A stretch of 40,232 nt of DNA, taken from contig CBDUKN010000022.1 in assembly GCA_965367815.1 (NCBI GenBank), positions 1 through 40,232 of the forward strand. The letters are read 5' to 3'. Numbering within the stretch: position 1 is the first letter of the stretch; each line of letters starts with the position of its first letter. This DNA is from an uncultured Thermoprotei archaeon (GTDB taxonomy: Archaea; Thermoproteota; Thermoprotei; Thermofilales; B15-G2). Made by a program: the position numbers and the translations under genes. Below the pieces are notes generated by a model, which was not told where the DNA came from, did not search any database, and worked only from the letters and a program-made list of their open reading frames with translations. Positions 4,154-29,221 of the stretch are shown here, one piece after another.

Positions 4154-4585
4154 TTGAGTGGTGAGTATGCTTGTCTTCTTAAGAAGAGGGCGTTGAATGC
4201 TTTTAAATGGGCTAAGAGGGCTTTTGAGGAAGGTGACTACGATACTGCTGCTCGTGAAGCTGGGTATGCTGCTCGATTGTATATTGAGTCTTTTATTTAC
4301 CGTGTTCTTGGCGAAGAGAGGAGGGGGCATGATATTAGAGGTCTTTTAGGTATTCTTGCTGCTGCTCTCATAGAGCAGGGTTTGAGTAGGGAAGCTGAAA
4401 GAATTTTTGACTTTATTAGGACTCATAGGAGGGAGTTAGCTGAGCTCGCAGAGGCTCATACTCGGGCGGTTTACGGGTTGTTTGAGTATGGTGAGAGGGA
4501 GGCAGGTTTAATTCTTAGGGTGGCGGAGGAAGTAATAGGGCTCTTGGAGTCGCTTGAGGTGGAGATATTTGGGGAGAAGGCTTGA
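4154..4585 (+). CDS. HEPN-domain protein
   Basis: RALNAFKWAKRAFEEGDYDTAA...RGHDI...RAVY HEPN pattern; adjacent to MNT. Confidence 0.85.
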   Translation: MSGEYACLLKKRALNAFKWAKRAFEEGDYDTAAREAGYAARLYIESFIYRVLGEERRGHDIRGLLGILAAALIEQGLSREAERIFDFIRTHRRELAELAEAHTRAVYGLFEYGEREAGLILRVAEEVIGLLESLEVEIFGEKA

Positions 4586-5801: not shown

Positions 5802-6206
5802 TTAGCGAGTGTTTACTATGTTGTTTAGGCTTATTGTTTTGATTATTTTGTTTGCTTTTTCTTTTAATTTTTTGTCTTCGGTTACTAGTATGAGGTTATG
5901 TTTTTCTGCTAGTGCTACGTAGGATGCGTCATATGCTGTTAAGTGTAGTTTTTTCGCGTATTCGAGTATTTTGTGTTCGAGATTACGTGGACTTAATATC
6001 TTCATGAAGTCTATGGTTTCTGTAAATATGTTTACCAGTTTGTTTGCTTCGTTTATAGTAATGCTTTTGACTAAGTAGGCTTCTTTCCATATGGCGTTGA
6101 GAGCTTCATATATTGTTAGCCACTGAAGGTAGTTGCCGTAGAGTAGTTCGATTTTACTGAGTTTTATTGCATATATTAGTGAAGAAGCGTCAAAAAGCAG
6201 CCGCAT
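5802..6206 (-). CDS. vapC: VapC PIN-domain toxin
   Basis: LFDASSLI, YEALNAIWK, TAYDASYVALA, LVTEDKKL. Confidence 0.93.
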   Translation of the reverse strand: MRLLFDASSLIYAIKLSKIELLYGNYLQWLTIYEALNAIWKEAYLVKSITINEANKLVNIFTETIDFMKILSPRNLEHKILEYAKKLHLTAYDASYVALAEKHNLILVTEDKKLKEKANKIIKTISLNNIVNTR

Positions 6207-8027: not shown

Positions 8028-9140
8028 TTATGATAGTGAGTGGAGTTCGTAGAGTATTTCTTTTTCCTTGATTATTTTGCTTGCTGGTATTTTAACGGCT
8101 ATTGTGGCGTCGTATGCTTTTTCTCCACTGGTTGTTTCTGTTTTTACTATGATTTTAAGTACTTGGTCCTTTATGTTTTCTATAGATATTTTGAGAGTCC
8201 ATTCGCTCCATAGGTCGCTCCATGTTTTCTTCATTTTGATCCATTCGCTGTCGTTTATTTTTAATAGTACTTCTTTTATTGACGAGTTTTCTGAGTATGC
8301 TTTAGCTGCTACTTCTACTGTATTCGATACTTCTATTACTTTGACTTGGGGTCTTGGCCCTAATGTGTGTTTTCTGTTGATGTGGGTGATGTATACTTGT
8401 GTTGTGCAGTATAGGTCTCGCCAGAAGCTTTTGATTGTTCGGTTTTCTAGTTTTATTATCCGGTAGCCTGGTCTTACTGGGTATCCATGGAAGGGCGGGA
8501 TTCCTGTCCACTGCCATCCGCAGAGAGGACCTGTGTTTACTACTTTTACTCCCTGTGTTGTCCACTCGCCGTTTCTGTGCCAGTGTCCTGTGATTAATGC
8601 TATTACGTTGTGTTTTCTCAGTATTGAGAGGAATTTATGTGGGTTTGTGTCTCGCCACTGGTCTAAGAAGACTCCATTTACTTCCTTTGGAGGCGGGTGT
8701 ACTGCTACTAGAGTCTTCTCAGATCCCTCTAGTTCTTTTACTAGCCATTTTTCTGTTTCAGGAGATAGCTCGGCTACCCATCTTCCTTCGCTAGTCTTTT
8801 TATTAACATCTAGGCATACTATTTTGTAGCCTTTTGTTTCGAAGGCAAAGTTTCTTTCTCCGAGTAGCTTCTCCCAGGGCTCGGGACCATTCCATACGTC
8901 GTGTGAGCCTGGGAGAGTGTATACTGGTACAGGGAATTTTTCTGCTAGCTCTAAGTACTTCTTGAGTTCTTTTTCAGTGCCTTGTAGTGCTACGTCTCCT
9001 GTACACAGTACAAAATCTACTGGCAGGTTTTCTATGTCTTGGGCGCACGCGAGGACATTTTGCTCGATGTCTTCTGGGAAAACGCGCGCTATGTTAGATA
9101 GTACGTGGATGTCTGTAATTTGGGCGAAATAGAGTGCCAC
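8028..9140 (-). CDS. Calcineurin-like metallophosphoesterase with C-terminal Ig-like beta domain
   Basis: TDIH, TGD, PGSHD, GHWH motifs. Confidence 0.85.
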   Translation of the reverse strand: MALYFAQITDIHVLSNIARVFPEDIEQNVLACAQDIENLPVDFVLCTGDVALQGTEKELKKYLELAEKFPVPVYTLPGSHDVWNGPEPWEKLLGERNFAFETKGYKIVCLDVNKKTSEGRWVAELSPETEKWLVKELEGSEKTLVAVHPPPKEVNGVFLDQWRDTNPHKFLSILRKHNVIALITGHWHRNGEWTTQGVKVVNTGPLCGWQWTGIPPFHGYPVRPGYRIIKLENRTIKSFWRDLYCTTQVYITHINRKHTLGPRPQVKVIEVSNTVEVAAKAYSENSSIKEVLLKINDSEWIKMKKTWSDLWSEWTLKISIENIKDQVLKIIVKTETTSGEKAYDATIAVKIPASKIIKEKEILYELHSLS

Positions 9141-9203
9141 AAATATTTTATTTTGGAGAAATACTAGATATTAAACCTCTGATTCGATTAAGACTGAGGT
9201 CTT

Positions 9204-9225
9204 TGTCACTGATATGTCAGTGATA
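9204..9225. promoter_or_regulatory. 22-bp palindromic operator, site 1
   Basis: TGTCACTGATATGTCAGTGATA, 20/22 match to perfect palindrome TATCACTGATATATCAGTGATA; TTATATA box at 9245-9251. Confidence 0.75.
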
Positions 9226-9272
9226 TTTGATTTATTAGTAACCGTTATATACTGGATGTATTTTTACTGATT

Positions 9273-9866
9273 GTGCACTGGAAGTATGCTCTCTACTGTG
9301 GTCGCTTTCAGCCACCTCATCAAGGACACTTGAATAGCGTTAAATACGGACTGAAGCTCGCTGAGAAAGTATTAATTGGTATTAGGGACACGCCTATTAC
9401 GCTGAAAAATCCTCTGACTGTTGATGAGAGAATTGAGGCTTGGAGAAGACTTCTCGTATCAGAAGGCTTGTGGGACAGAGTTGTTGTTAAGAAAATTCCC
9501 GATTTCGGCAAAGAAACTCCGCTACCTAAGGAGGATAAAGTTGTTTTAAAGGGTCATCCTCTGCTAGACTGGGCTCGCGAAGTCGAGTGTATTTTCGGCA
9601 TATCGCCCGAAGAAGCTGTCTTTATAGGGAATAAGCCTTCTATGGTTCTTGCATTTAATCTTTTAGGCTATATTGTAGTACCTGGGCATAGGAATGTTCA
9701 TCGTTTAATAGAGGTTTCTGCTTCAGAACTTAGGAAAATGATTTTGAGTAAGAATGAGAAATGGGCTAGTTTGCTACCTAAGCCTGTAGCAGACTACTTG
9801 AAGGAAATAGACATTTATAGTAGGCTGAAGTCGCTAGAAGGTACTGACGAGATTTCTACGGGCTAG
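9273..9866 (+). CDS. HIGH-family nucleotidyltransferase (NMN adenylyltransferase-like/cytidylyltransferase-like)
   Basis: GRFQPPHQGH, NPLTVDER, SASELR...W..LLPKPVADYL. Confidence 0.85.
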   Translation: MHWKYALYCGRFQPPHQGHLNSVKYGLKLAEKVLIGIRDTPITLKNPLTVDERIEAWRRLLVSEGLWDRVVVKKIPDFGKETPLPKEDKVVLKGHPLLDWAREVECIFGISPEEAVFIGNKPSMVLAFNLLGYIVVPGHRNVHRLIEVSASELRKMILSKNEKWASLLPKPVADYLKEIDIYSRLKSLEGTDEISTG

Positions 9867-9899
9867 CCTTCAGATTTTTATTTTCTGTGAGTGTATTAA

Positions 9900-10118
9900 G
9901 TGATAGATATGTGTGCTAAGTCGTCGCGTAAAAGGAAAGTAGAGTATGTGAATATTCCTATTCCTAGGCCTCTTTACGAGAGGCTTGCGAAGGCTTTAGA
10001 GGGCTCTGGGTACAGGAGTCCCACAGAGTACATTATTTTCCTTATAAGGAAGAATTTGCCCGACCTGGAGTCAGAGGATGTTAAGAGGAGGCTTAGGGCG
10101 CTAGGTTATATTCCATGA
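9900..10118 (+). CDS. CopG/RHH protein with C-terminal RLRALGY motif
   Basis: VNIPIPRPLYERL...GYRSPTEYIIFLIR; ends VKRRLRALGYIP. Confidence 0.85.
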   Translation: MIDMCAKSSRKRKVEYVNIPIPRPLYERLAKALEGSGYRSPTEYIIFLIRKNLPDLESEDVKRRLRALGYIP

Positions 10119-10120
10119 AA

Positions 10121-10142
10121 TATCACTGATATATACGTGATA
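10121..10142. promoter_or_regulatory. 22-bp palindromic operator, site 2
   Basis: TATCACTGATATATACGTGATA, 20/22 match to the same consensus; BRE-TATA GAAAGCTTATATA at 10161-10173. Confidence 0.75.
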
Positions 10143-10195
10143 ATTAACTGTGTTCTCTAGGAAAGCTTATATAGTTAAGATTCTTAGGGAAATCA

Positions 10196-10411
10196 ATGTC
10201 TGAGGAGAAAGTAGCTATCTATATTCCTAAGAGCCTCTACGAGAAAGTTAAGAAGCAAGTAGAGGAGTCTGGGGGAGAGTTCAAGAGTGTTGAAGAGTAC
10301 ATAGTATTTGTTCTAGAGGAGCTAGTGAAGGAGGAAGAGGAGGAAGCAGTCTATTCTCCTGAGGAAGAAGAGGAAATTAAGAAGAGGCTCAGGGCTCTCG
10401 GCTACCTTTAG
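10196..10411 (+). CDS. CopG/RHH protein with acidic linker and C-terminal RLRALGYL motif
   Basis: VAIYIPKSLYEKV...FKSVEEYIVFVLEE; ends YSPEEEEEIKKRLRALGYL. Confidence 0.9.
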   Translation: MSEEKVAIYIPKSLYEKVKKQVEESGGEFKSVEEYIVFVLEELVKEEEEEAVYSPEEEEEIKKRLRALGYL

Positions 10412-10420
10412 GTGTCTTAA

Positions 10421-11782
10421 ATGAAGGTTTTTGTTTTAGGTATAGATAGCGCTGAACCTGAGCTAGTTTTCGGCAAGTGGTTTAACGAGCTTCCTACTAT
10501 CAAGCAGCTAGCTGAAGATGGTGCATGGGGTAAAATAGCTAGCACAGTGCCTCCGATAACTTGTCCGGCATGGGTTTCAGGTTTATCAGGCTTTAATCCC
10601 GGCTATTTTGGTCTCTACGATTTGAGATACAGGAAGAAAGGTAGCTATACTGACTTCGGTATAGTGAATTCGCGCATGGTTACTAAGCCTAGAGTATGGG
10701 ATATTTTAAGTGAGCGCAGAAAGAAGTGCGGCGTAGTATTTGTTCCTGTAACTTATCCGCCTAGCAAAGTTAACGGCTTTATGGTCTCAAGCTTTCTTAC
10801 TCCTACAACTAAAAGCCCTTTTACTTACCCTAAGAGCCTTAAGGAAGAGATCTTTAAGGTTATTGGAGGCGAAGACAAGTACATTATAGATGTGTACGAC
10901 TATAGAAGAAAAGACCCAAAGCAGCTTCTAGAAGAGCTTAAAGCTAAAACAGAGCACGACTTCAAGATAATAAGGTATCTGCTGAAGAAGCCGTGGGACT
11001 TCTTTATGGCTGTAATAATGTCTATTGACAGAGCTCAGCATACTCTATGGAAGTTCTTTGACGAAGAACATCCGCGGTTTATTGAAGACCTTGAGCTCAA
11101 AGACGGTCTCCTCGAGCTACATAAGCAAATAGACGAGGAGTTAGCTAAGACGCTTGAACTTCTACCTAAAGACACAGCTATAGTAATTGTATCTGACCAC
11201 GGCGCTAAGAGAATGTATTACAGAATAAATGTTAACGAAGTCTTAGTCAATGAAGGTTTCCTCAAGCTTAAAGAAAGGCCGAAGAAAGTAATTAGTTTGA
11301 GAGAAGCCGATGAAAAGGGGCTTATTGACTGGGAGAAAACACAGGCTTTTGCTCTAGGAGCCTATATTGCACAAGTCTTCATTAATGTTGAGGGAAGAGA
11401 GCCTAAAGGTGTAGTTAAGCCTGGAGAAGAATACGAGAGAGTGCGAGAAGAAGTAGCCGATGTACTGAAGAAAGTTAAGGGGCCTAATGGACAGCCGCTA
11501 AACAATATCGTGTACATGAAGGAAGATGTCTATGAGGGAGATAAACTTGATGTAATGCCTGATATCACTGTTTACTTTGATAACCTGCACTATGGCGCTA
11601 ATGAAGCTCTAGGACACGGCTCAATTTATAGCCTCGAGACAGCCAAAGGGCCCGACGATAGTAATCACGGAGAATACGGAATGCTTGTAGTGTGTGATCC
11701 TGAGGGAAGATATAGAGGTAGACTAGAAGGTCTAAAAATGGAGGATCTTGCAGGCATAATACTGAAGCTTGCCAGTAGCTAG
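10421..11782 (+). CDS. AlkP-superfamily phosphodiesterase/nucleotide pyrophosphatase-like enzyme (COG3379-like)
   Basis: VLGIDSA, PPITCPAW (Thr nucleophile), DRAQH, SDHG, NH metal ligands. Confidence 0.9.
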   Translation: MKVFVLGIDSAEPELVFGKWFNELPTIKQLAEDGAWGKIASTVPPITCPAWVSGLSGFNPGYFGLYDLRYRKKGSYTDFGIVNSRMVTKPRVWDILSERRKKCGVVFVPVTYPPSKVNGFMVSSFLTPTTKSPFTYPKSLKEEIFKVIGGEDKYIIDVYDYRRKDPKQLLEELKAKTEHDFKIIRYLLKKPWDFFMAVIMSIDRAQHTLWKFFDEEHPRFIEDLELKDGLLELHKQIDEELAKTLELLPKDTAIVIVSDHGAKRMYYRINVNEVLVNEGFLKLKERPKKVISLREADEKGLIDWEKTQAFALGAYIAQVFINVEGREPKGVVKPGEEYERVREEVADVLKKVKGPNGQPLNNIVYMKEDVYEGDKLDVMPDITVYFDNLHYGANEALGHGSIYSLETAKGPDDSNHGEYGMLVVCDPEGRYRGRLEGLKMEDLAGIILKLASS

Positions 11783-11868
11783 CTTCTTACTTTTTCTCTA
11801 ATCCGCTTTTACTGTACGTTTAGTACATATTTTTAAATAGCGAATACGTGTTTAAGTAAAGGGTCTAC

Positions 11869-14800
11869 ATGAGTGCTTCAGTGCTTGCAGCGCTGTCAGG
11901 TCTAACAGCAGTTACTGTAGTACTTCCCCGTAGAGCAAGATCTATTAAAATCGTTTTGAGCAAAAGAGGAGTACTTTCTCTAGGGCTTTCTTGTCTGGGA
12001 GTATTTTTTATTGCGGCGCTATTTGCTGAATACCTTAAGCTAATGTACTTAGTTTTCGCAGTAGGTTTTTCAGTAGTCCTCCTTATGGGAGTATGTAGAA
12101 GTAGTGTATCAGGTAGTATTGCCTTGAGTTTTAGTATAGGCTACTTGCTTTGCTGTATTTTCTACTTGGTGTTTATTCATACTGGTTTTTCTTTGAGATT
12201 ATCTACATTAACGTTAAGTATGGTCTTTGCTATTGTAGTAGTTTTATTTATTGTCAGAATATTTAGTAGGAAAGAGTTCGCTACAAAAATTAATGTCGAG
12301 GATTTTCTCCTAGTAGCTTTTTTAGCCATAGCAGTATATATTATCTTTACGCTGTATCCTCGTGTAGTTTTAGTAAAGTATTTTCCCGCACGCAAGTACT
12401 GGGGTCTTACGGCAAGCTTTATTCGCTCTGGCTCAGTGCCTCTCGGCTTCACTTTATACTACTTATTTAGAGAGCTTGCGTTTTTCTCTTCTAGTGACTT
12501 ATTGACTATGGAGACTAGTTTAGTTATTATTTCTTTGTCAAGTATATTTGCTATATACTTTTTGTCGAAGAAGATTATGGGCAGCAAGGCGGCTTTTTCC
12601 GTTTTTCTTTTTGCTTTATCGTCTGGGCTAGGCTGGATTTATGTTTTGAAGGAGTATGGTTTATCTGAGCTAACTAAAGGAACTATTTTGTCTTCATTTG
12701 AAGTAACTTTAATGGATATTGGTCAGGGAGTAAGTACTTTTACTTGGATTTGCTTTACTCCTATTTCAGTTGGATTACTTTTAGCTTGTTGTGCACTAGC
12801 ATTGATTATTTTTAGTGAAAATACTAAGGAAAATGTTGTTGGCGCGCTGTGTTATTTAGGTCTGTTTTTCACGTGTATTGATGTAGCCTTAGCTCTTTCG
12901 CTTTTCTTTGGGCTATTTGCTTTAACAGGTTTTTATCGCAGAAAAGCTATGCTAAGTACTGTCATCGTTGAGCTTCTTGTTTTAACTACTTTTATTTTAT
13001 ACGAGGTATCTGCGGCAGTAGTAGTAGGTATTATTGTAGCTAGTTTGCTGCTTAAAAGTCTACGGCTTGTAGTTCGAGATAGTAAAGGGAGACGTGTAGA
13101 GTGCTTTTTCTCACTTTTTCTTGCAGCTACTCTTTGCGCTTCTTTAGTGAGTTTTTATGAGTGGATTTATAGAGGAGGAACATGGCCTACTGAAAGCTAT
13201 TTAGCGGGAGAAGTAGTGCCTGTAAGCTACTACTTAGTTGTAATGGGGATTCTGTTTTTCTTAGGTGTTTTAACATTTTCTTTAAAGGAGTTTGGTTTTA
13301 TTCAGTTAGAGGATTCTGTTTACTCTGTTTTAGTCTGCTTAGCCTTCTCATCTATCGTTGTAGGTAAAGTTTTTGCTGGAGTAAATTCTTTCATGGACTG
13401 TACTTTTCTTTCAGAGAGAAGAGTCTTGGAGCTAGCTTTTCTCGCTTTTGCCCTGTCTTCTACTTATCTACTGTATAGTGCTAAGAGGACTCTTAGAGTG
13501 CTATTTAGGAGAAAAGGAGAAGTGGCTGCGGCTATACTAGTTTTCTCTATTACTATGGCTAGTCTTTATTCTACAGTTTTTACTGTAAGGTTCTGGAGAA
13601 CATTAAGTAAGCTAGACGACTGTGTTCTGAAAGTAGAGGATATCGGCGGGCTACATAACTTGACAGCTCTACTGGACGACTTGAAGACAAGTAGAGTACT
13701 AGTCTTTTCTCAGAATAGCTGCTATCTAGTAGAGTCTATTGCAGAGCCCTACGACTATACTTTAGTTCCTTGGAGCTTTGCGCGCTGCGTGTATTTTCCT
13801 GAGTTCAGCTATACTATGTCTTGCTGGAAAGGAAAATACTTAGTCCTGAGTAAAAGCGACTACAATTTTATTTGCAGAAAATACAAGTGGAGCTATCTTT
13901 ACCAGTGTGTTTCTAGTGAAGATAATCTTGTTTTTGAAGATTCGGCTTGGAGAGTATACTTGCTTAAAGCGTACACTTTGCCTTCGCTTTCTTCGAGAAC
14001 AGCTGTAGTTTTTTGGCCTTCAGTAGGTCTCCGGAGAGTATCTTTTGTACTGGAAGTTTTTTCTAAAGAGGAAATCAACTATACGCTAGTACTGCCAGAT
14101 GATTTCCTTACAATCGATAGCGCTGACACTGTTATTTTACTAAATGATCCCGCTGACCTATCTTTTTCAATAAGTGGTAAGAGCTTAGTAATTGTAATTA
14201 ATTTAAAGGGATATGGTTTCTTCGCCAATAACTACGGTTGTCTTTTAGCTGAGAAAAACAGAGTCTACTCGATATACTTTACTAAAGGCCTAGAAATACC
14301 TGTTAACAAGAGTGTTTATGTCAAGAGACTTTATTTCTTCAATTCAACTCCAATAGCATACTACATTCGTAAAGAAGAGAGCATAGCCGGAATTTTTGCA
14401 TGCATGTTTCAGCTCAATGGAACACGTGTACTGTATATTAATGCCTATCCTCTTATTAGAGCAGGAGCATACGATGAGCTGAAATACTGTTTGACAGAAA
14501 TACTCGACAGTATAGTTAAGTTAAACAGAGTTAAGAGAGATTATTGTTTGAAGAGAGTATTTCTTTCGAGCGAAATTTTGCTAAAAGGCGATGTCTGTAT
14601 TAAATGTAAGTCTGTTATTTTCAAGAATGTTCCTTTGACTGTATATTATGCTGATGAAGTTAAAATCGTTTCTGAGCAAGCTTATGTAAAAGGAGAACTG
14701 TGGATGTATACTCGGATTGTGGCTAAAGCTCCGGTTATCATTATTAAAAATGGTGTTTTCGAATACTCTGACAGAATATGGTGCGAAAAGAGCGCGGCTA

Positions 14801-15168
14801 TAGTTTTAAACCAGTCAGTAGTCTTCTATGCTAGAAGACCTATTATTGAGTGTAAAGGGTACTGTATGCTACGTGACTACATGTACTTTGGGCCAGAGAG
14901 CCTTGAATACGGTTTACCCTATAGACACAGTGGAGTAGCCAGTGTAAACGGGTATGTGAGAATGAGAGTTTTGTTGTCTACTTGGTCTCTGCAGATAATT
15001 GATGTTTTCGAGTATTCTGGAGTTTTAATGCTCGATAGTAGAGCTAGAGTTCTTTTCGGCGACTGGAATAGCTTTATTAATGTCTTTATTTTTCTACTGC
15101 TTTTAGTAGTTATTTATTTATCAATGAATGTTATTAAAGAAAGATATTCTGTTAAAAAGGGTGAGTAA
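11869..15168 (+). CDS. Large polytopic membrane protein with extracytoplasmic C-terminal domain (GT-C-like glycosyltransferase candidate)
   Basis: 1099 aa; numerous hydrophobic segments in the N-terminal ~570 aa, soluble domain, C-terminal TM. Confidence 0.65.
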   Translation: MSASVLAALSGLTAVTVVLPRRARSIKIVLSKRGVLSLGLSCLGVFFIAALFAEYLKLMYLVFAVGFSVVLLMGVCRSSVSGSIALSFSIGYLLCCIFYLVFIHTGFSLRLSTLTLSMVFAIVVVLFIVRIFSRKEFATKINVEDFLLVAFLAIAVYIIFTLYPRVVLVKYFPARKYWGLTASFIRSGSVPLGFTLYYLFRELAFFSSSDLLTMETSLVIISLSSIFAIYFLSKKIMGSKAAFSVFLFALSSGLGWIYVLKEYGLSELTKGTILSSFEVTLMDIGQGVSTFTWICFTPISVGLLLACCALALIIFSENTKENVVGALCYLGLFFTCIDVALALSLFFGLFALTGFYRRKAMLSTVIVELLVLTTFILYEVSAAVVVGIIVASLLLKSLRLVVRDSKGRRVECFFSLFLAATLCASLVSFYEWIYRGGTWPTESYLAGEVVPVSYYLVVMGILFFLGVLTFSLKEFGFIQLEDSVYSVLVCLAFSSIVVGKVFAGVNSFMDCTFLSERRVLELAFLAFALSSTYLLYSAKRTLRVLFRRKGEVAAAILVFSITMASLYSTVFTVRFWRTLSKLDDCVLKVEDIGGLHNLTALLDDLKTSRVLVFSQNSCYLVESIAEPYDYTLVPWSFARCVYFPEFSYTMSCWKGKYLVLSKSDYNFICRKYKWSYLYQCVSSEDNLVFEDSAWRVYLLKAYTLPSLSSRTAVVFWPSVGLRRVSFVLEVFSKEEINYTLVLPDDFLTIDSADTVILLNDPADLSFSISGKSLVIVINLKGYGFFANNYGCLLAEKNRVYSIYFTKGLEIPVNKSVYVKRLYFFNSTPIAYYIRKEESIAGIFACMFQLNGTRVLYINAYPLIRAGAYDELKYCLTEILDSIVKLNRVKRDYCLKRVFLSSEILLKGDVCIKCKSVIFKNVPLTVYYADEVKIVSEQAYVKGELWMYTRIVAKAPVIIIKNGVFEYSDRIWCEKSAAIVLNQSVVFYARRPIIECKGYCMLRDYMYFGPESLEYGLPYRHSGVASVNGYVRMRVLLSTWSLQIIDVFEYSGVLMLDSRARVLFGDWNSFINVFIFLLLLVVIYLSMNVIKERYSVKKGE

Positions 15169-15169
15169 T

Positions 15170-17962
15170 ATGGGTGAGCGCTATGTTTTTAAAGAAAAGT
15201 CCTCCACTATTTTTGTGAAAAAAGTACTAGTGCCAGTATTTCTACTGGCAGTGAGCATAGCTGCAGTTTTCTTAGCTCCTGTTTCAGAGAAACTCGCCCT
15301 ATCTATTCTCTACATAGAGGATCCCCGTAAAGTGCTCACTTTGCAAAAATATTCTTGGAATCCTCTTGTTTCAGAAAGCTTTTCGAAAGTAGGAGTGAAT
15401 GTATATTTATCTGATTTGATTCTGTATGCTATTGAAGCTGTAGTCAGCGGAGTTAATGTCTACTACCTTACTTTAATTATTTTATCTTATTTGGTTTCTT
15501 TAGGTGCATATTTTGCTGTAAGCAAGTACTCTAAAGATGTAGTTTACGGTTTTATTGCTGGATGTCTTGCTGTAGCCTGGCTGCTGTATGCGGTAAGGCT
15601 TTTCTATAATATTCATGTGCTTATTCATTTGTCTTTATTTCTATTTACTGTAGGTTTTGCGTTAATTATATCTGGAAAAAAGAAGGTTTTTCTCTATTCT
15701 TTAATGGGATGTATTGTAGGCTTTGCTTTCGTATATGACAAGTGTACTGGTCTGCTTTACTTAGTGGCTTCTTCGTTGTCTTTGAGGAATATTAGAGAAT
15801 TGAAGTACTATCTATTTGTTATAGTACCTGTTGTTTTCGCGTTAATTTATAGAGAAAACTACTTGTTTGATCAAAGAACTTTATGTTATATGAGCCCAGG
15901 TTTTTCTTCTTTCCCTTACTTCAATTTACTTGTAGTTATTTTCGGCTTATTGATTATATATAAGAAGGCTTCACTAAGGGCTCCCGGATTGGTAGTTGTT
16001 GGAGGCTTTTCTCTTCTTTTGTATCTATTATACTTTAAGGAAATTTACTTATGGTATTTCTTCTGTATTTTAATCATAGTCTTTTCTACGTATTTAAGTA
16101 TTAGTGATGAAAATATATTTTCTAGATTTAAGCTACTGGTTATTATAGGTAAAAGAGTTTCTTCAATTAAATCATTTATATACATTAGGAGAAGTAAAGT
16201 TAGTTTTGTTAAAGTAATTGTAGCGTTTTTAGTAGTAATTATTTTCTTTGAGGTCTTTTCAGCTACCGGGAGTTTCCCCGGGAAATCTTTAGCTGCAATT
16301 AAAGGTAGGGGTCTTGAAGAAGTGTGTATATGGATTCCGCGAAGCGTATATAGTAGCTACTACTTAAATGCCGCTATTTTGCCTTATGCTCCTGCGCTAT
16401 CGCCGTCGCTTAGTGTTAATTCTATACGGTACAGTTACTTAGAAGGAGTTGTTTGGGAGAAAAGGTCTAGAAATCTCCCCTACTTGCTTTATGTGAGTGG
16501 AATTAAGTGGCTTACTACTGTTGGAGCGGAGTCAGCTTACTTTTCACAGTATTTAGCTGAAACAGGTTTACGTGAAGTAGCGTCTACTAAGAATATTAGT
16601 GTATATGAAAATATGCTAAATGTTTCTCGCGTAAGAGTTTCTCCTGAAGCTATTCTTGTCTTCGGAGATGTTAATTTCCTTGAGACTCTGAGCAATATTA
16701 TTAAGGAAAACAATATTACAGTTAAAAGCGCGCCTCCAGTGATTTTTGTTAAGTCTATTGAGGAGTACAAGATGTTTAATCATTCTCCTATAATATTTTA
16801 TAATCGTGACTATAGGTCGATGGCTCTGGAACTTTATTTAGAGAAATATAACTTAGTTAAAGAGTATAATGGTGTAGTTGCGGACAGAAAAGTACTTGTT
16901 TTGAGGAAGGGTGAGAAAAGAGATTTTCCATGCAATATACGTAAAGGAATTATTTACACTGTGTGGGTTAAAGCATTGTTTAATGCTAGTGGAGGAGCTC
17001 TAGTTGTCAAGATAGGCGATAAGACTTTAAGTCTTATTACAGAAAAAGAGCTCTTTAATCCAGTTTTCTTGTGGATTGAGCTAGGTAAAGTAGTGTCTGG
17101 CGAAGAAGCCAGTAGTGTAGAAATTGAGTGTACGGTAGGCACATGTGTTTTAGAGAAACTTATTGTAGTTCAGCTCGACACCTTTGATAGAGTATTAGAG
17201 CTTGTTAGACAAGATCTTAGTGGGAGAAACTTTGTTTACTTATATGACTTAGAGTTCTTTTTCACAAGTCTAGGGTTTAGGTCAGGTGTCGACGAGGAGT
17301 TCTACTGTAGAGCAGCGGTATGCTATCCGTTCAAAAGCTGTAGAGGAGAACTTTACTTCGACTTACCTGAAGAAGGAGTCTATACTCTTACAATAAGGGT
17401 GTCGCGAGTAGCAAGAGAAATATTCATTTCTTACGGTGTTTTCGACTCAACATATCTTGCATTCAATATACCTATTGGCTACGGCTACTCTAACTTAACT
17501 TATACTATTAAAGCGAAGACTGGGTCGCATATGCTCTTAGTGTATATTTCTAATATTCGTCCTCAGTGCATTTACTTCGACTACCTGTTAGTAGAGCCTC
17601 AAGGCTTTTCGTTCATAAAATTCCTCAAATCTATTTTCTCTAAGACTGCTGACTATAAGCTGGTGTCAAGTTCTCCTACGGAAATAGTTTTGAATCTGAA
17701 TAGAAGCGCCTACATTGTCTTGCATGAAGATTACTCGGAGAAATGGAAGCTAATACTACCTAATGGAACTTCTATTTCGCCAGTACTATGTGACACTGGA
17801 GTATGCTGCTTTAAGGCTTCAGCAGGAGACGTTAGAATAGTGTATGCAGAGGGTATGAGAGAGACTAAAGTGTATTTGAGGAATATCTTCTTCGCCGTTT
17901 TTCTTTTACTTTCTTTAGTAGTTGATGCGGTGGTAAGTTATGTCGGAAGAAAAAGAAGATAG
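15170..17962 (+). CDS. Large membrane protein, YfhO/GT-C-like
   Basis: Multi-TM N-terminus; C-terminal YIVLHEDYSEKWKL resembles the YfhO-type end domain; ATG at 15170 follows the upstream stop (track start 15128). Confidence 0.65.
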   Translation: MGERYVFKEKSSTIFVKKVLVPVFLLAVSIAAVFLAPVSEKLALSILYIEDPRKVLTLQKYSWNPLVSESFSKVGVNVYLSDLILYAIEAVVSGVNVYYLTLIILSYLVSLGAYFAVSKYSKDVVYGFIAGCLAVAWLLYAVRLFYNIHVLIHLSLFLFTVGFALIISGKKKVFLYSLMGCIVGFAFVYDKCTGLLYLVASSLSLRNIRELKYYLFVIVPVVFALIYRENYLFDQRTLCYMSPGFSSFPYFNLLVVIFGLLIIYKKASLRAPGLVVVGGFSLLLYLLYFKEIYLWYFFCILIIVFSTYLSISDENIFSRFKLLVIIGKRVSSIKSFIYIRRSKVSFVKVIVAFLVVIIFFEVFSATGSFPGKSLAAIKGRGLEEVCIWIPRSVYSSYYLNAAILPYAPALSPSLSVNSIRYSYLEGVVWEKRSRNLPYLLYVSGIKWLTTVGAESAYFSQYLAETGLREVASTKNISVYENMLNVSRVRVSPEAILVFGDVNFLETLSNIIKENNITVKSAPPVIFVKSIEEYKMFNHSPIIFYNRDYRSMALELYLEKYNLVKEYNGVVADRKVLVLRKGEKRDFPCNIRKGIIYTVWVKALFNASGGALVVKIGDKTLSLITEKELFNPVFLWIELGKVVSGEEASSVEIECTVGTCVLEKLIVVQLDTFDRVLELVRQDLSGRNFVYLYDLEFFFTSLGFRSGVDEEFYCRAAVCYPFKSCRGELYFDLPEEGVYTLTIRVSRVAREIFISYGVFDSTYLAFNIPIGYGYSNLTYTIKAKTGSHMLLVYISNIRPQCIYFDYLLVEPQGFSFIKFLKSIFSKTADYKLVSSSPTEIVLNLNRSAYIVLHEDYSEKWKLILPNGTSISPVLCDTGVCCFKASAGDVRIVYAEGMRETKVYLRNIFFAVFLLLSLVVDAVVSYVGRKRR

Positions 17963-25406: not shown

Positions 25407-26418
25407 CTTCTTTTGAAAGCTTAAAGAAGTAGACTTTGCTGGATGCTAAGCCAAGTGACTTCATGTAGTTTTCTAGTTTTTCTGCAAGAACTTTTTCTTT
25501 GTCTGGCTCAGTTAAAATTATCACGCTTCCACCGCCTCCCGCGCCGCTAAGCTTTGCTCCTAGTGCTCCGTTTCTGAGAGCGTAGTTTATTACAGAGTTA
25601 TTGTAGTACCCTGCTCCGTGCTCAAAGCCGGCAAGCTTCATGGCTATGTTGACCCACTTGTGGTTAATGTTCATGAGTCTGCCGAACTCTTCCCAGTTTT
25701 CTTCAAGTAAAGCGTACTTGCCTTTCACTGCGGTTAAGCCGACTATCCTCATTGCCCTAAGTATTTTCGCTTTCTTCGGGTCAAGCTTGCCTTCTTTCAC
25801 GAGCTTTAGCTCAGCCATGTACGCTGACCTAAATTTTTTGTGAACACTGCCTGAATCTCTTCTTACACCTAGATACGCTATTATTAGTGGAATGTAATCA
25901 ACGTATTGGTCAAGTCTCTCGTATGTAGCTAAAGGTTCTTTGCGGAGCGGTTTATGGTATAGTTTTCCGCGAAAATCCATGTACGCTAAGCCGCCCATAG
26001 TGCATACATAGCGGTCTGCGTAGCCGCAAGTTATGCCAGCTGCTTCTTCTGCTCTCTGGACTAGCTCTGCTAATATATAGTCGTTTAATTTCTTTTTACT
26101 TAAATTGAAGTATTCTCTAATTCCATGCATGAAAGCTACCATTAGTGCTGTTGAGCTAGCTAAACCTGCTTCTCGAGGAATCTCTGTCCAGTATTCAGTT
26201 TCAAGAGAGTCTTCTTTAACGTGAGAATATTCTTCAGGGAAATATGTTTTAAGCACTTGGAGGCAGCTTTCAAAAAGAGGTAGCAGGTTTTTCTTTCCTT
26301 CTTTTACTTTAACATAAGCTCTTAGCGAGATTGCTGCTGATATTACAGCGTACGCTCCTTCCAGAGCGTCAGTTGGGTTTCCTAGAATATTTACTCTGCC
26401 GGGAGCAGAAACAATCAC
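25384..26418 (-). CDS. GHMP sugar kinase (glucuronokinase/galactokinase-like)
   Basis: SAPGRVNILGNPTD, IPREAGLASS, GAKLSGAGGGG; GTG at 26418 chosen because the track start (26604) overlaps the divergent gene. Confidence 0.88.
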   Translation of the reverse strand: MIVSAPGRVNILGNPTDALEGAYAVISAAISLRAYVKVKEGKKNLLPLFESCLQVLKTYFPEEYSHVKEDSLETEYWTEIPREAGLASSTALMVAFMHGIREYFNLSKKKLNDYILAELVQRAEEAAGITCGYADRYVCTMGGLAYMDFRGKLYHKPLRKEPLATYERLDQYVDYIPLIIAYLGVRRDSGSVHKKFRSAYMAELKLVKEGKLDPKKAKILRAMRIVGLTAVKGKYALLEENWEEFGRLMNINHKWVNIAMKLAGFEHGAGYYNNSVINYALRNGALGAKLSGAGGGGSVIILTEPDKEKVLAEKLENYMKSLGLASSKVYFFKLSKEGAKTEEI

Positions 26419-27856: not shown

Positions 27857-29221
27857 TTAGAAGGGAAGCTCTGATAGCTCATATTTTTCTTGAAGCATTC
27901 TTTGTATCTCTATGGATCTACGGCTCGCGTAAAGGTAGCAGTATCTGGAGAGATAAGAAGCCATTTTCTTAGCTACATCAGGGCACTCGTCTATTAGGTT
28001 TTTAGTTTCTCCGGGGTCATTCTCTAAGTCGTAAAGCTCGTCTTTGGCATCTGGTCTAAATATGAAGCTCCATTTTTCTGTCCTAACGCAGCGGTGAGCT
28101 GACTCGTGATATCCTGTGACAATGAAGTCTCTCAATTTCTCTACTTTCTCTTCAAGTAGTGGAAGTAGACTCCTGCCATGCATGTATCTGTTCTCTCTGC
28201 TTAGGCCTATTATGTCGAGAATTGTAGCTGGTACGTCTATATTTTCGACGAGCTGTTTGACTCTTTTGCCAGCGTACTGGTTTTCAGGGAACTTGATTAT
28301 TAGAGTCATTCTGACTAGCTCGCTCCACAGTGTATGTGGGTGCTTTAGTATCCATCCGTGTTCACCTAGAGGGACACTATGGTCTGATAGGAGTACTATG
28401 AGTGCGTCGTCGTAGTAATTTAGTTCTTTTAGTTTTTCGAGAAGTACACCGACCCACTTGTCGACAAAGGTTACTTCTCCCGCGTAGAGGCCTCTTATGT
28501 ACTTTAGTTCTTCTTCGGTGAGCCAGTCGATTTTACCGTACTTGGGGTGAATTATCTTTTTGCCTCTATACTTGGGGTCAGTGTATATTTTCTCGTATTT
28601 GGGTGGAGGATCCCATGGTTCGTGGGGATCAAAGCAGTCTACCCAAAGGAAGAATGGTTCCCGTGCTTCTCTTTCAAGCCAGTCTACAGCTTCTCTAATT
28701 ACCTTTGCTACGAAGTAGTCTTCTTCAGTTTCTCTGTCTATAATGTTTCTTAAGTACTGTATTAAGAGTTTTTCGACATTTGTTCCCTTCATTTCTGGCT
28801 TCATGAATTCTTCTGGAATATATTTGGGTGGGCCTGAACGATAGGTGTCTCCTTCTTGTCCTCTAATCCACCTCCAGACGTGGAATCCTCTATGGAAGTT
28901 CATTCCTGGCTTGAATAAGTGGTAAGTGTCTGTAATGAGGGCGTTTGTATAGCCGTAGGCTCCAAGTATTTCGGCGATAGTTATGTCTTCTGAAGTTAGA
29001 GGCTGCCATGGTCTGAAAGGCAGAGTATATTGTCCTGTAAAGAGTGCTGTTCGAGCAGGAATAGTTGGAAGGCCTTCTGGATACGCGTTCTCAAATATAA
29101 CTCCGTCTTTAGCTAAACTATCAATATTAGGAGTCTTAATTTTCTCGTTTCCATAGCAGTGTACATGGTCTGGTCTTAGGCTGTCAAGCATTATGACAAT
29201 AATGTTTGTTTCGGGTTTCAC
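27857..29221 (-). CDS. Sulfatase-like AlkP-superfamily hydrolase (Thr at nucleophile position)
   Basis: IMLDSLRPDH, TPNID, PTIPARTALFTG, DPHEPW, SDH, ELYDLENDPGE. Confidence 0.9.
   Translation of the reverse strand: MKPETNIIVIMLDSLRPDHVHCYGNEKIKTPNIDSLAKDGVIFENAYPEGLPTIPARTALFTGQYTLPFRPWQPLTSEDITIAEILGAYGYTNALITDTYHLFKPGMNFHRGFHVWRWIRGQEGDTYRSGPPKYIPEEFMKPEMKGTNVEKLLIQYLRNIIDRETEEDYFVAKVIREAVDWLEREAREPFFLWVDCFDPHEPWDPPPKYEKIYTDPKYRGKKIIHPKYGKIDWLTEEELKYIRGLYAGEVTFVDKWVGVLLEKLKELNYYDDALIVLLSDHSVPLGEHGWILKHPHTLWSELVRMTLIIKFPENQYAGKRVKQLVENIDVPATILDIIGLSRENRYMHGRSLLPLLEEKVEKLRDFIVTGYHESAHRCVRTEKWSFIFRPDAKDELYDLENDPGETKNLIDECPDVAKKMASYLSRYCYLYASRRSIEIQRMLQEKYELSELPF

Follow-up and report, generated by a model that had tools for sequence, protein, structure and literature searches.

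Paired ribbon-helix-helix regulators with a C-terminal LGY tail that may dock into a neighbouring AlkP-superfamily enzyme in a Thermoprotei archaeon

The four-gene locus and its paired operators

The present study concerns a small regulatory locus of an uncultured Thermoprotei archaeon, carried on a stretch of 40,232 nucleotides (contig CBDUKN010000022.1 of assembly GCA_965367815.1), which is called the window hereafter. Two short genes on the forward strand, RHH1 (9900-10118, + strand, 72 aa in the list of open reading frames, ORFs) and RHH2 (10196-10411, + strand, 71 aa), code for putative regulators of the ribbon-helix-helix (RHH) type. They are followed by the gene of an AlkP-superfamily enzyme resembling the nucleotide pyrophosphatase/phosphodiesterases (NPP-like; 10421-11782, + strand, 453 aa), and only 9 nt separate the RHH2 stop codon from its start. 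RHH2, which ends in YSPEEEEEIKKRLRALGYL, joins a ribbon-helix-helix core to an acidic linker and is a typical member of an LGY-tail RHH regulator family; RHH1, which ends in ESEDVKRRLRALGYIP, is a divergent paralogue of the same family. As read from the ORF translation and the alignment, the RHH1 tail follows a short linker and is encoded at 10068-10115 (+ strand). The RHH2 tail comprises residues 52-71 (VYSPEEEEEIKKRLRALGYL; 10349-10408, + strand), and it is this part that contacts the enzyme in the complex model described below. The two proteins are 40% identical (E 7e-13), and their last residues, RRLRALGYIP in RHH1 and KKRLRALGYL in RHH2, share the heptapeptide RLRALGY. When the whole 2.45 Mb genome was read in all six frames, this heptapeptide stood at the C-terminus of RHH1 and RHH2 only. 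The AlkP enzyme ends in MEDLAGIILKLASS and is tail-less. A first-pass annotation of this DNA had described two tailed RHH paralogues beside a tail-less AlkP enzyme, and had added that a sulfatase-like ORF further on is also without the tail. Both descriptions hold, the sulfatase-like ORF (27857-29221, - strand; PF00884, E 4.1e-42) ending in QEKYELSELPF. Near position 26328 of G000 C15 there is a 253-aa ORF with the exact C-terminus EYLRQLGY, which is probably unrelated to the tail family.

The gene upstream of the RHH pair codes for an NMNAT-like nucleotidyltransferase (9273-9866, + strand, 197 aa, GTG start at 9273) in which an HxGH motif is present. This locus-specific paralogue matches PF01467 at E 2.2e-7 and scores 78 bits against the NCBIfam NMNAT model, which is under the cut-off of 127. 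The true start of RHH1 is probably the ATG at 9909 and not the GTG at 9900, because the orthologue in the related locus L003 begins there and a TATA-like box (9875-9884) lies about 25 bp upstream.

Two operators are found at this locus, one before the NMNAT-like gene and one before RHH2. Operator A (9203-9231, no strand assigned) contains CASTGATAT half-sites at 9207-9215 and 9218-9226, spaced by 11 bp, and the NMNAT-like gene has its TATA box 17 bp further downstream. This TTATATA box (9245-9251, + strand, read from the sequence) is placed about 25 bp before the GTG at 9273, and from this position the promoter of the NMNAT-like gene would appear to be leaderless. Operator B (10115-10143, no strand assigned) has overlapping inverted half-sites at 10120-10128 (- strand) and 10124-10132 (+ strand), plus ACGTGATAA. 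It overlaps the stop codon of RHH1, is mostly conserved in L003, and lies 24 bp upstream of the RHH2 TATA box, again a TTATATA (10167-10173, + strand, about 26 bp before the ATG at 10196). The two operators match each other at 83% over 29 nt. CASTGATAT occurs five times in the window against 0.72 expected, a count that was reached in 0 of 100 shuffles; four of the five copies fall within operators A and B, and pairs of half-sites at most 30 bp apart occur genome-wide only at these two places. The twin operators of the first-pass annotation are real. A fifth, single half-site, CAGTGATAT (11562-11570, - strand), lies in the 3' part of the AlkP gene.

A regulator family at the head of sulfate activation operons

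The AlphaFold2 (AF2) model of RHH2 has a pLDDT of 80.9, with an extended N-terminus and helices at residues 12-24 and 32-48. When the model was compared with solved structures by VIA-align, nearly all of the best rows were RHH proteins. NikR was matched with Z 5.8 (root mean square deviation 1.1 over 46 residues), a Z below 8 being weak if taken alone, and the RHH domain of PutA with Z 5.2 (deviation 1.1 over 44 residues). The antitoxins 5ceg, 5zgn, 7ak7 and 6xrw were matched with Z 5.1-5.9 over 63-67 residues; low scores of this kind are typical for so small a domain. In Foldseek too all rows were RHH proteins, at E>=0.7 with none at E<=0.001. Judging from the modelled fold, RHH1 and RHH2 are paralogues of the RHH type within a conserved regulator family.

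The family itself is large. A phmmer search with RHH2 gave 91 relatives with E values down to 1.9e-31, and LxxLGY followed by zero to two residues stands at the C-terminus of all 91. A family hidden Markov model (HMM) built from the loci described below gave RHH2 102.4 bits and RHH1 66.7 bits. A profile search over 1.84 billion representatives at the 50% identity level returned 2232 of them at E<=1e-3 and 765 at E<=1e-10; the tail was at the C-terminus in 145 of the best 150, and the family ranges over many archaeal and several bacterial phyla. In a 29-row alignment seven columns are invariant (E59, K62, R64, L65, L68, G69 and Y70), all of them in the tail and none in the DNA-binding core. Orthologues of RHH1 in L003, L087, L089, L004 and L012 are 72-90% identical to it. 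Relatives that are longer than RHH2 or fused were not returned by a search for them at E<=10, and fused forms were found among the representatives of the profile search (P0336, P0212, P0221). The natural fusions (P0336, P0220, P0212 and also L122) take the form of a single chain of APS kinase, RHH and tail, of an RHH protein with a double tail, and of tandem RHH-tail units. Literature searches, aimed at the tail and at RHH regulation of ATP sulfurylase, gave nothing beyond PMC8268124 and an unrelated paper on spectrin. The family is large, yet in print it is represented, as far as the available text of that paper goes, by a one-line 'putative copG'.

To describe the surroundings of the family, one genome per species was scanned with the tail peptide as the search pattern. 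This gave at least 436 RHH-centred loci, of which 80 were kept, and their neighbouring genes were clustered and annotated with Pfam. ATP sulfurylase (Sat) was found in 46 of the 80 loci, the kinase of adenosine 5'-phosphosulfate (APS kinase, CysC) in 36, the orthologue of the window AlkP enzyme in 33, a DHH phosphoesterase in 19, a small sulfotransferase in 16, CysD in 13 and CysN in 7. Na/sulfate symporters, parts of sulfate ABC transporters, TauE and sugar-nucleotide genes are also encoded nearby. Where at least 4 kb was available on both sides (42 loci), Sat or CysD was present in 35, the AlkP orthologue in 21, a small AlkP protein in 5 and a sulfotransferase in 11. The usual gene order is RHH, Sat, DHH, AlkP, CysC. 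The RHH family normally heads operons for sulfate uptake and activation, consisting of Sat or CysDN, CysC, a DHH phosphatase of adenosine 3',5'-bisphosphate (pAp; pApase), and AlkP or a sulfotransferase. The first-pass annotation had proposed control of a surface-glycan modification pathway, which this context does not support, since it is not glycan genes as such that are conserved around the family.

The AlkP orthologue and the small sulfotransferase were never found in one RHH locus (0/80), the rest of the operon being alike, and the NPP-fold enzyme may be a functional alternative to the sulfotransferase. This alternation in otherwise equal operons suggests that the AlkP enzyme acts on or with an activated sulfate nucleotide, which is our best guess for its substrate. 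A comparable cluster has been described in Pyrococcus yayanosii. According to the available text of Jin et al. 2021 (PMC8268124), it consists of copG, ATP sulfurylase, DHH pApase, the AlkP gene, annotated as a type I phosphodiesterase/nucleotide pyrophosphatase, and APS kinase; its first gene (PYCH_17520) codes for a putative copG factor, suggested as a potential regulator of the pathway, and P. yayanosii and similar organisms have no known sulfotransferase. This cluster has the same architecture as many of the related loci collected here. The part of PMC8268124 available to us names PYCH_17520 with no tail, operator or enzyme contact, and the likeness drawn here is one of gene cluster, not of sequence comparison. 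As compared to that cluster, the window locus is without Sat, DHH and CysC, and has the NMNAT-like gene and two RHH paralogues instead.

The gene order of the window locus and the 9-nt spacing would also fit a toxin-antitoxin-like pair, in which RHH2 would be the antitoxin and its C-terminal helix would neutralise a harmful enzyme. When RHH2 is matched over its full length, the best structures are those of RHH antitoxins whose C-terminal helices bind a partner, and the RHH type II antitoxins ParD, TacA, KacA and relatives share its architecture, in which a flexible linker joins the RHH core to a C-terminal helix that binds the product of the downstream gene. However, the partner here is a housekeeping-type NPP-fold enzyme without a toxin family match in Pfam, it belongs to metabolic pathway operons conserved across phyla, and no mobile-element context is seen. 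The tail is, moreover, also found on CysC, CysD and AlkP enzymes. A toxin-antitoxin pair is therefore a very improbable explanation.

The window genome, which is 99.4% complete, harbours a reduced variant of the operon. No ATP sulfurylase (PF01747) or APS kinase (PF01583) was found in it with Pfam and with HMMs built from the loci, and the locus-built HMMs found no operon-type sulfotransferase either. What is conserved is a quartet of the NMNAT-like gene, RHH1, RHH2 and AlkP, which also exists in L003, L004, L012, L087 and L089, with AlkP identities of 55-85% across the loci; the NMNAT-like orthologue is present at the locus in L003, L004, L012 and L087. In all five of the other genomes of the class sample that have RHH and AlkP without Sat, the NMNAT-like orthologue (63-77% identity), RHH and AlkP share a contig. 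The NMNAT-like gene lies at most 3 kb from RHH/AlkP in four of these genomes and about 8 kb away in G039, and each of the five has a more distant NMNAT-like paralogue elsewhere. The NMNAT-like gene (4 loci) and Sat (46 loci) never occurred in the same locus, and the former occupies the position of ATP sulfurylase in related operons. As both proteins belong to the HxGH nucleotidyltransferase class, the NMNAT-like gene may plausibly be a non-orthologous replacement of Sat.

The enzyme and the proposed docking of the tail

The AlkP enzyme matches PF01663 with 132.4 bits (cut-off 23; E 3.7e-38). In an alignment of 60 sequences the residues D9, D203, H207, D259, H260 and H416 do not vary, and T47 is conserved almost throughout; by analogy with known NPP enzymes the six are taken as metal ligands and T47 as the threonine nucleophile. 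A search of PDB sequences with the enzyme gave no significant match. The orthologue L102, used as a stand-in for the window protein, was modelled by AF2 with pLDDT 91.1 and has an NPP-like fold, and in Foldseek it matched Xanthomonas NPP and ENPP1 at E ~1e-15 and probability 1.00. These are the closest solved folds (2gsn and 7mw8 from Xanthomonas, 4gtw for ENPP1), and the metal-ligand and threonine positions are kept. The window enzyme differs from the solved NPPs in its low identity (12-16%, as measured through L102), in being cytoplasmic, in its place in sulfate-activation operons and in its alternation with a sulfotransferase. Compared with most orthologues, the window enzyme and those of a small clade (P0093, P0130, P0133-P0144) are about 13 residues shorter at the C-terminus and have no final P..LDGKSLL stretch. 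A 478-aa sulfatase-like paralogue (counted from the first start codon) at G000 C12:72790-74226 (L166 191-1627) has a degenerate copy of the tail motif in an internal position, SEDNIRKLEKLGYI, with 18 residues still to follow.

The contact between tail and enzyme that the first-pass annotation had proposed finds support in a complex model. With the AlkP enzyme (60-row alignment) and RHH2 residues 36-71 as input, the complex model gave an ipSAE of 0.73 (0.73, 0.76 and 0.65 in three runs), as compared to 0.01 for the best control. Among solved complexes 116 of 157 scored up to this mark, and among mismatched pairs 2 of 215. Contact agreement between runs was at least 84% and the pLDDT of the partner at least 64. 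Since the sequence search gave no solved relative of the AlkP enzyme, the model is unlikely to have reproduced a known complex structure; it is possible that it learned from relatives that carry the tail in cis. The modelled tail contacts AlkP residues 67-69, 79-81, 83, 85, 112-113, 125-126, 128-129 and 132, and further 157, 159-160, 204, 207, 314, 409 and 412. Tail residues 52-65 run along AlkP 79-85 and 125-132, R64 contacting F125 and D157, and residues 67-71 come near R204, H207 and D412. Among the contacted residues P113, F125, P128, D157, R204 and H207 are invariant in the alignment.

It could be possible that the tail is a substrate, in line with the modifiable carrier of the first-pass annotation. 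Its tyrosine would receive a sulfate or another modification from the AlkP-fold enzyme, or from the sulfotransferase where AlkP is replaced by it, so that the regulator would report activated sulfate covalently. Y70 is invariant, residues 67-71 adjoin R204, H207 and D412 at the catalytic centre of the model, and the mutual exclusion of AlkP orthologue and sulfotransferase is as expected for alternative enzymes of one job. However, the nucleophile T47 is outside the confident contacts, the window genome is without Sat or CysC to supply APS or 3'-phosphoadenosine 5'-phosphosulfate (PAPS) by the known route, and some cis tails have no tyrosine (L082-L084). Modification of the tail is thus improbable.

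The reading that we favour, and to which we assign a probability of about 0.5, is that the RHH pair autoregulates the four-gene locus and that its tail is a portable docking peptide which enters the cleft of the neighbouring AlkP enzyme in trans. RHH1 and RHH2 would bind the paired CASTGATAT operators near both TTATATA promoters and would in this manner control all four genes. The acidic linker and the helix E..K.RL..LGY would constitute the portable module, which in the model docks into the substrate cleft of the enzyme. Occupancy of the enzyme and DNA binding could then be coupled, as in CysE-CysK, CymR-CysK and the RHH antitoxins, and the tail would have to compete with substrate for the cleft, so that the state of the enzyme would feed back on transcription.

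Co-occurrence of the genes was studied in 61 genomes of the class, cross-tabulated by hand, where related genomes are not independent of each other. The AlkP orthologue is present in 18/18 genomes with RHH and in 3/43 without it, as compared to Sat in 11/18 and 16/43, respectively. RHH is at most 3 kb from AlkP in 14 of the 18 genomes. The tail itself was surveyed in 80 AlkP-centred metagenome loci, and a tail-bearing protein was found in 43 of them: CysC as the only carrier in 22, RHH as the only carrier in 13, AlkP itself in 2, CysC with RHH in 1, AlkP with CysC in 1, and other proteins in 4. An extended CysC tail is seen in 21 of 34 loci without RHH as compared to 1 of 9 with RHH (Fisher p 0.009, related genomes again not being independent). 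The tail is fused to the AlkP orthologues L102 and L111 and to the AlkP paralogue L158, as an acidic linker followed by RRLEDLGYL or QRLRGLGYLE, and the sulfatase L136 ends in RERLRALGYVN. In the L102 model the tail helix (502-514) has pLDDT 76-85, with a weaker linker before it. In several bacterial APS kinases (L101, L103, L108 and similar ones) the native last helix, KLEELGYL, is tail-like, and a second copy, ERLAALGYL, comes after it behind an acidic linker. A duplicated C-terminal helix of CysC may be the origin of the tail.

The cis-tail orthologues L102 and L111, together with the C-terminus of the window enzyme and its closest clade, which is about 13 residues shorter than in most orthologues, could also be taken to mean that the enzyme is split. 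AlkP would in that case need the tail as a structural or catalytic lid, present in cis in relatives and supplied by RHH here, and DNA binding would be secondary. The first-pass annotation had likewise stated that relatives carry the tail which this enzyme lacks. This is overstated, as the tail-less form is the norm in the AlkP subfamily: the tail is on 0/120 of the nearest homologues of the enzyme, and an own tail is present in only 2/80 AlkP orthologue loci. No tail-bearing neighbour is seen in the flanks of 37/80 AlkP loci, many of which have short flanks, the complete genome G049 has AlkP without RHH, and the catalytic residues are complete without the tail. A split enzyme is accordingly a quite doubtful explanation, with little probability left to it.

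A number of results weigh against docking of the tail on AlkP as well. The homologues without a tail and the AlkP loci without a tailed neighbour, just mentioned, are among them. In the class profile RHH is absent from 3/21 genomes with AlkP, one of them being the complete G049; co-occurrence is in any case expected of any gene pair sharing an operon. The 80 RHH loci cannot gauge the conservation of the tail because they were found through the tail pattern. The ipSAE of 0.73 is the model's own confidence, nothing more. The interface residues of AlkP are equally invariant in clades without a visible tail partner, and therefore their conservation may reflect substrate binding alone. The RHH assignment itself draws no significant match from sequence searches: Pfam gave no family for RHH1 and only E>=0.032 for RHH2, NCBIfam gave CdrS at E 0.037 (14 bits, cut-off 100), and the best match of the RHH profile among PDB sequences was NikR at E 0.74. 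The CysD of CysDN-type operons ends in MQKLRALGYM. Lastly, the RHH tail is equally invariant in the sulfotransferase-type operons (11 of the 42 loci with full flanks), which never have the AlkP orthologue. In five genomes with such operons the orthologue was found in 0/5, the best score being 258 bits as compared to at least 337 for orthologues, and these genomes have only AlkP paralogues of 541-560 aa with degenerate tails, or nothing.

As the tail is unchanged where AlkP is absent, its target may be the AlkP or the sulfotransferase of the operon, or it may serve in self-association or bind an effector. In the latter case the tail would not be specific for AlkP and the docking model would be a false positive. 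The tail could then be a helix for self-association or cooperativity, joining RHH dimers on tandem half-sites or the tail-bearing proteins of the pathway with one another, or it could bind a shared partner or effector such as sulfate, APS, PAPS or pAp. The presence of the invariant tail in genomes with sulfotransferase-type operons and no AlkP orthologue favours this, as does its presence on CysD, CysC and sulfatases, which are of unrelated folds. A second RHH gene lies within 4 kb in 23/80 loci, both proteins being tail-bearing, double-tail and tandem forms exist (P0220, P0212), and the tail helix has pLDDT ~87 already in the monomer model. On the other hand, no enzyme or partner is common to all loci, and the window genome keeps the tail without having Sat, CysC or sulfotransferase. 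The complex model passed with clean controls, the class profile links RHH to AlkP far tighter than to Sat, and fusions of AlkP with the tail exist. We consider an unspecific tail unlikely on balance, yet a serious alternative. For the docking in trans that the first-pass annotation had proposed, the complex model, the co-occurrence and the natural fusions speak in favour; that the tail is a matter of AlkP specifically did not stand, given the tails on CysC and CysD and in sulfotransferase-type operons.

A far-reaching extension can be imagined, although it strikes us as improbable. The acidic linker and LGY helix would be a pathway-wide pseudo-substrate tag, and the NPP-fold enzyme an undescribed sulfuryl-transferring stand-in for the sulfotransferase, which in this genome would depend on an NMNAT-like sulfate adenylyltransferase in place of Sat and CysC. 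The tag tyrosine on RHH, CysC and CysD would be bound by this enzyme and perhaps sulfated, so that transcription and enzyme assembly would both read activated sulfate.

Other identities of the tail were considered and set aside. The HbYX proteasome-docking motif and the PIP box of PCNA have a different residue pattern, and for a membrane-targeting amphipathic helix the operon context points elsewhere.

Likeness to known systems and flanking genes

Coupling of an enzyme to a tail is well known in sulfur metabolism. In CysE-CysK and in CymR-CysK of Bacillus subtilis a C-terminal tail enters the active site of the enzyme, where it is in competition with the substrate; the partner of the enzyme in CymR-CysK is a transcription regulator, and the tail of the CysE-CysK type ends in isoleucine. 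The folds are unrelated to those discussed here (a pyridoxal phosphate enzyme versus NPP, Rrf2 versus RHH), the tail of the present family is an LGY helix, and its contact with the enzyme is modelled only. The repressors Arc, CopG, MetJ and omega are likewise small RHH proteins, whose binding sites near promoters are short half-sites repeated at intervals of about one helical turn. However, they have no enzyme-docking tail, MetJ senses a small molecule, and none gave a significant sequence match here. What is already known, therefore, is the gene cluster at the level of annotation, RHH proteins with partner-binding tails, and enzyme-regulator coupling through a tail in the cleft in sulfur metabolism. 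If the tail docks as modelled, a metabolic enzyme would be wired straight to its own promoter in a manner widespread in archaea. The arrangement would be reminiscent of the cysteine synthase complex, with the difference that the peptide is portable and has moved in evolution among regulator, kinase, adenylyltransferase and the enzyme itself. Docking would also give a clue to what the uncharacterised phosphodiesterase gene of archaeal sulfate-activation clusters does.

Downstream of the AlkP gene two large membrane proteins are encoded (11869-15168 and 15128-17962), with a TATA-like box of their own at about 11834-11844 that has no paired operator. A Pfam search with both proteins gave zero matches, and the first (11869-15168) resembles PF10131 (PTPS_related) by language-model (Atlas) features only, at 0.93. 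Their adjacency to the AlkP gene is kept in L003 (30-39% identity) and L086 only. On the other side a metallophosphoesterase (8028-9140, - strand; PF00149, CpdA-like) is divergent from operator A. It stands beside the quartet only in the near-identical L086, which does not indicate membership of the quartet. Further upstream there are a nucleotidyltransferase/HEPN pair (2295-2753 and 4154-4585) and a PIN-domain ORF (5802-6206), likely genes of the toxin-antitoxin type that have no relation to the RHH/AlkP finding.

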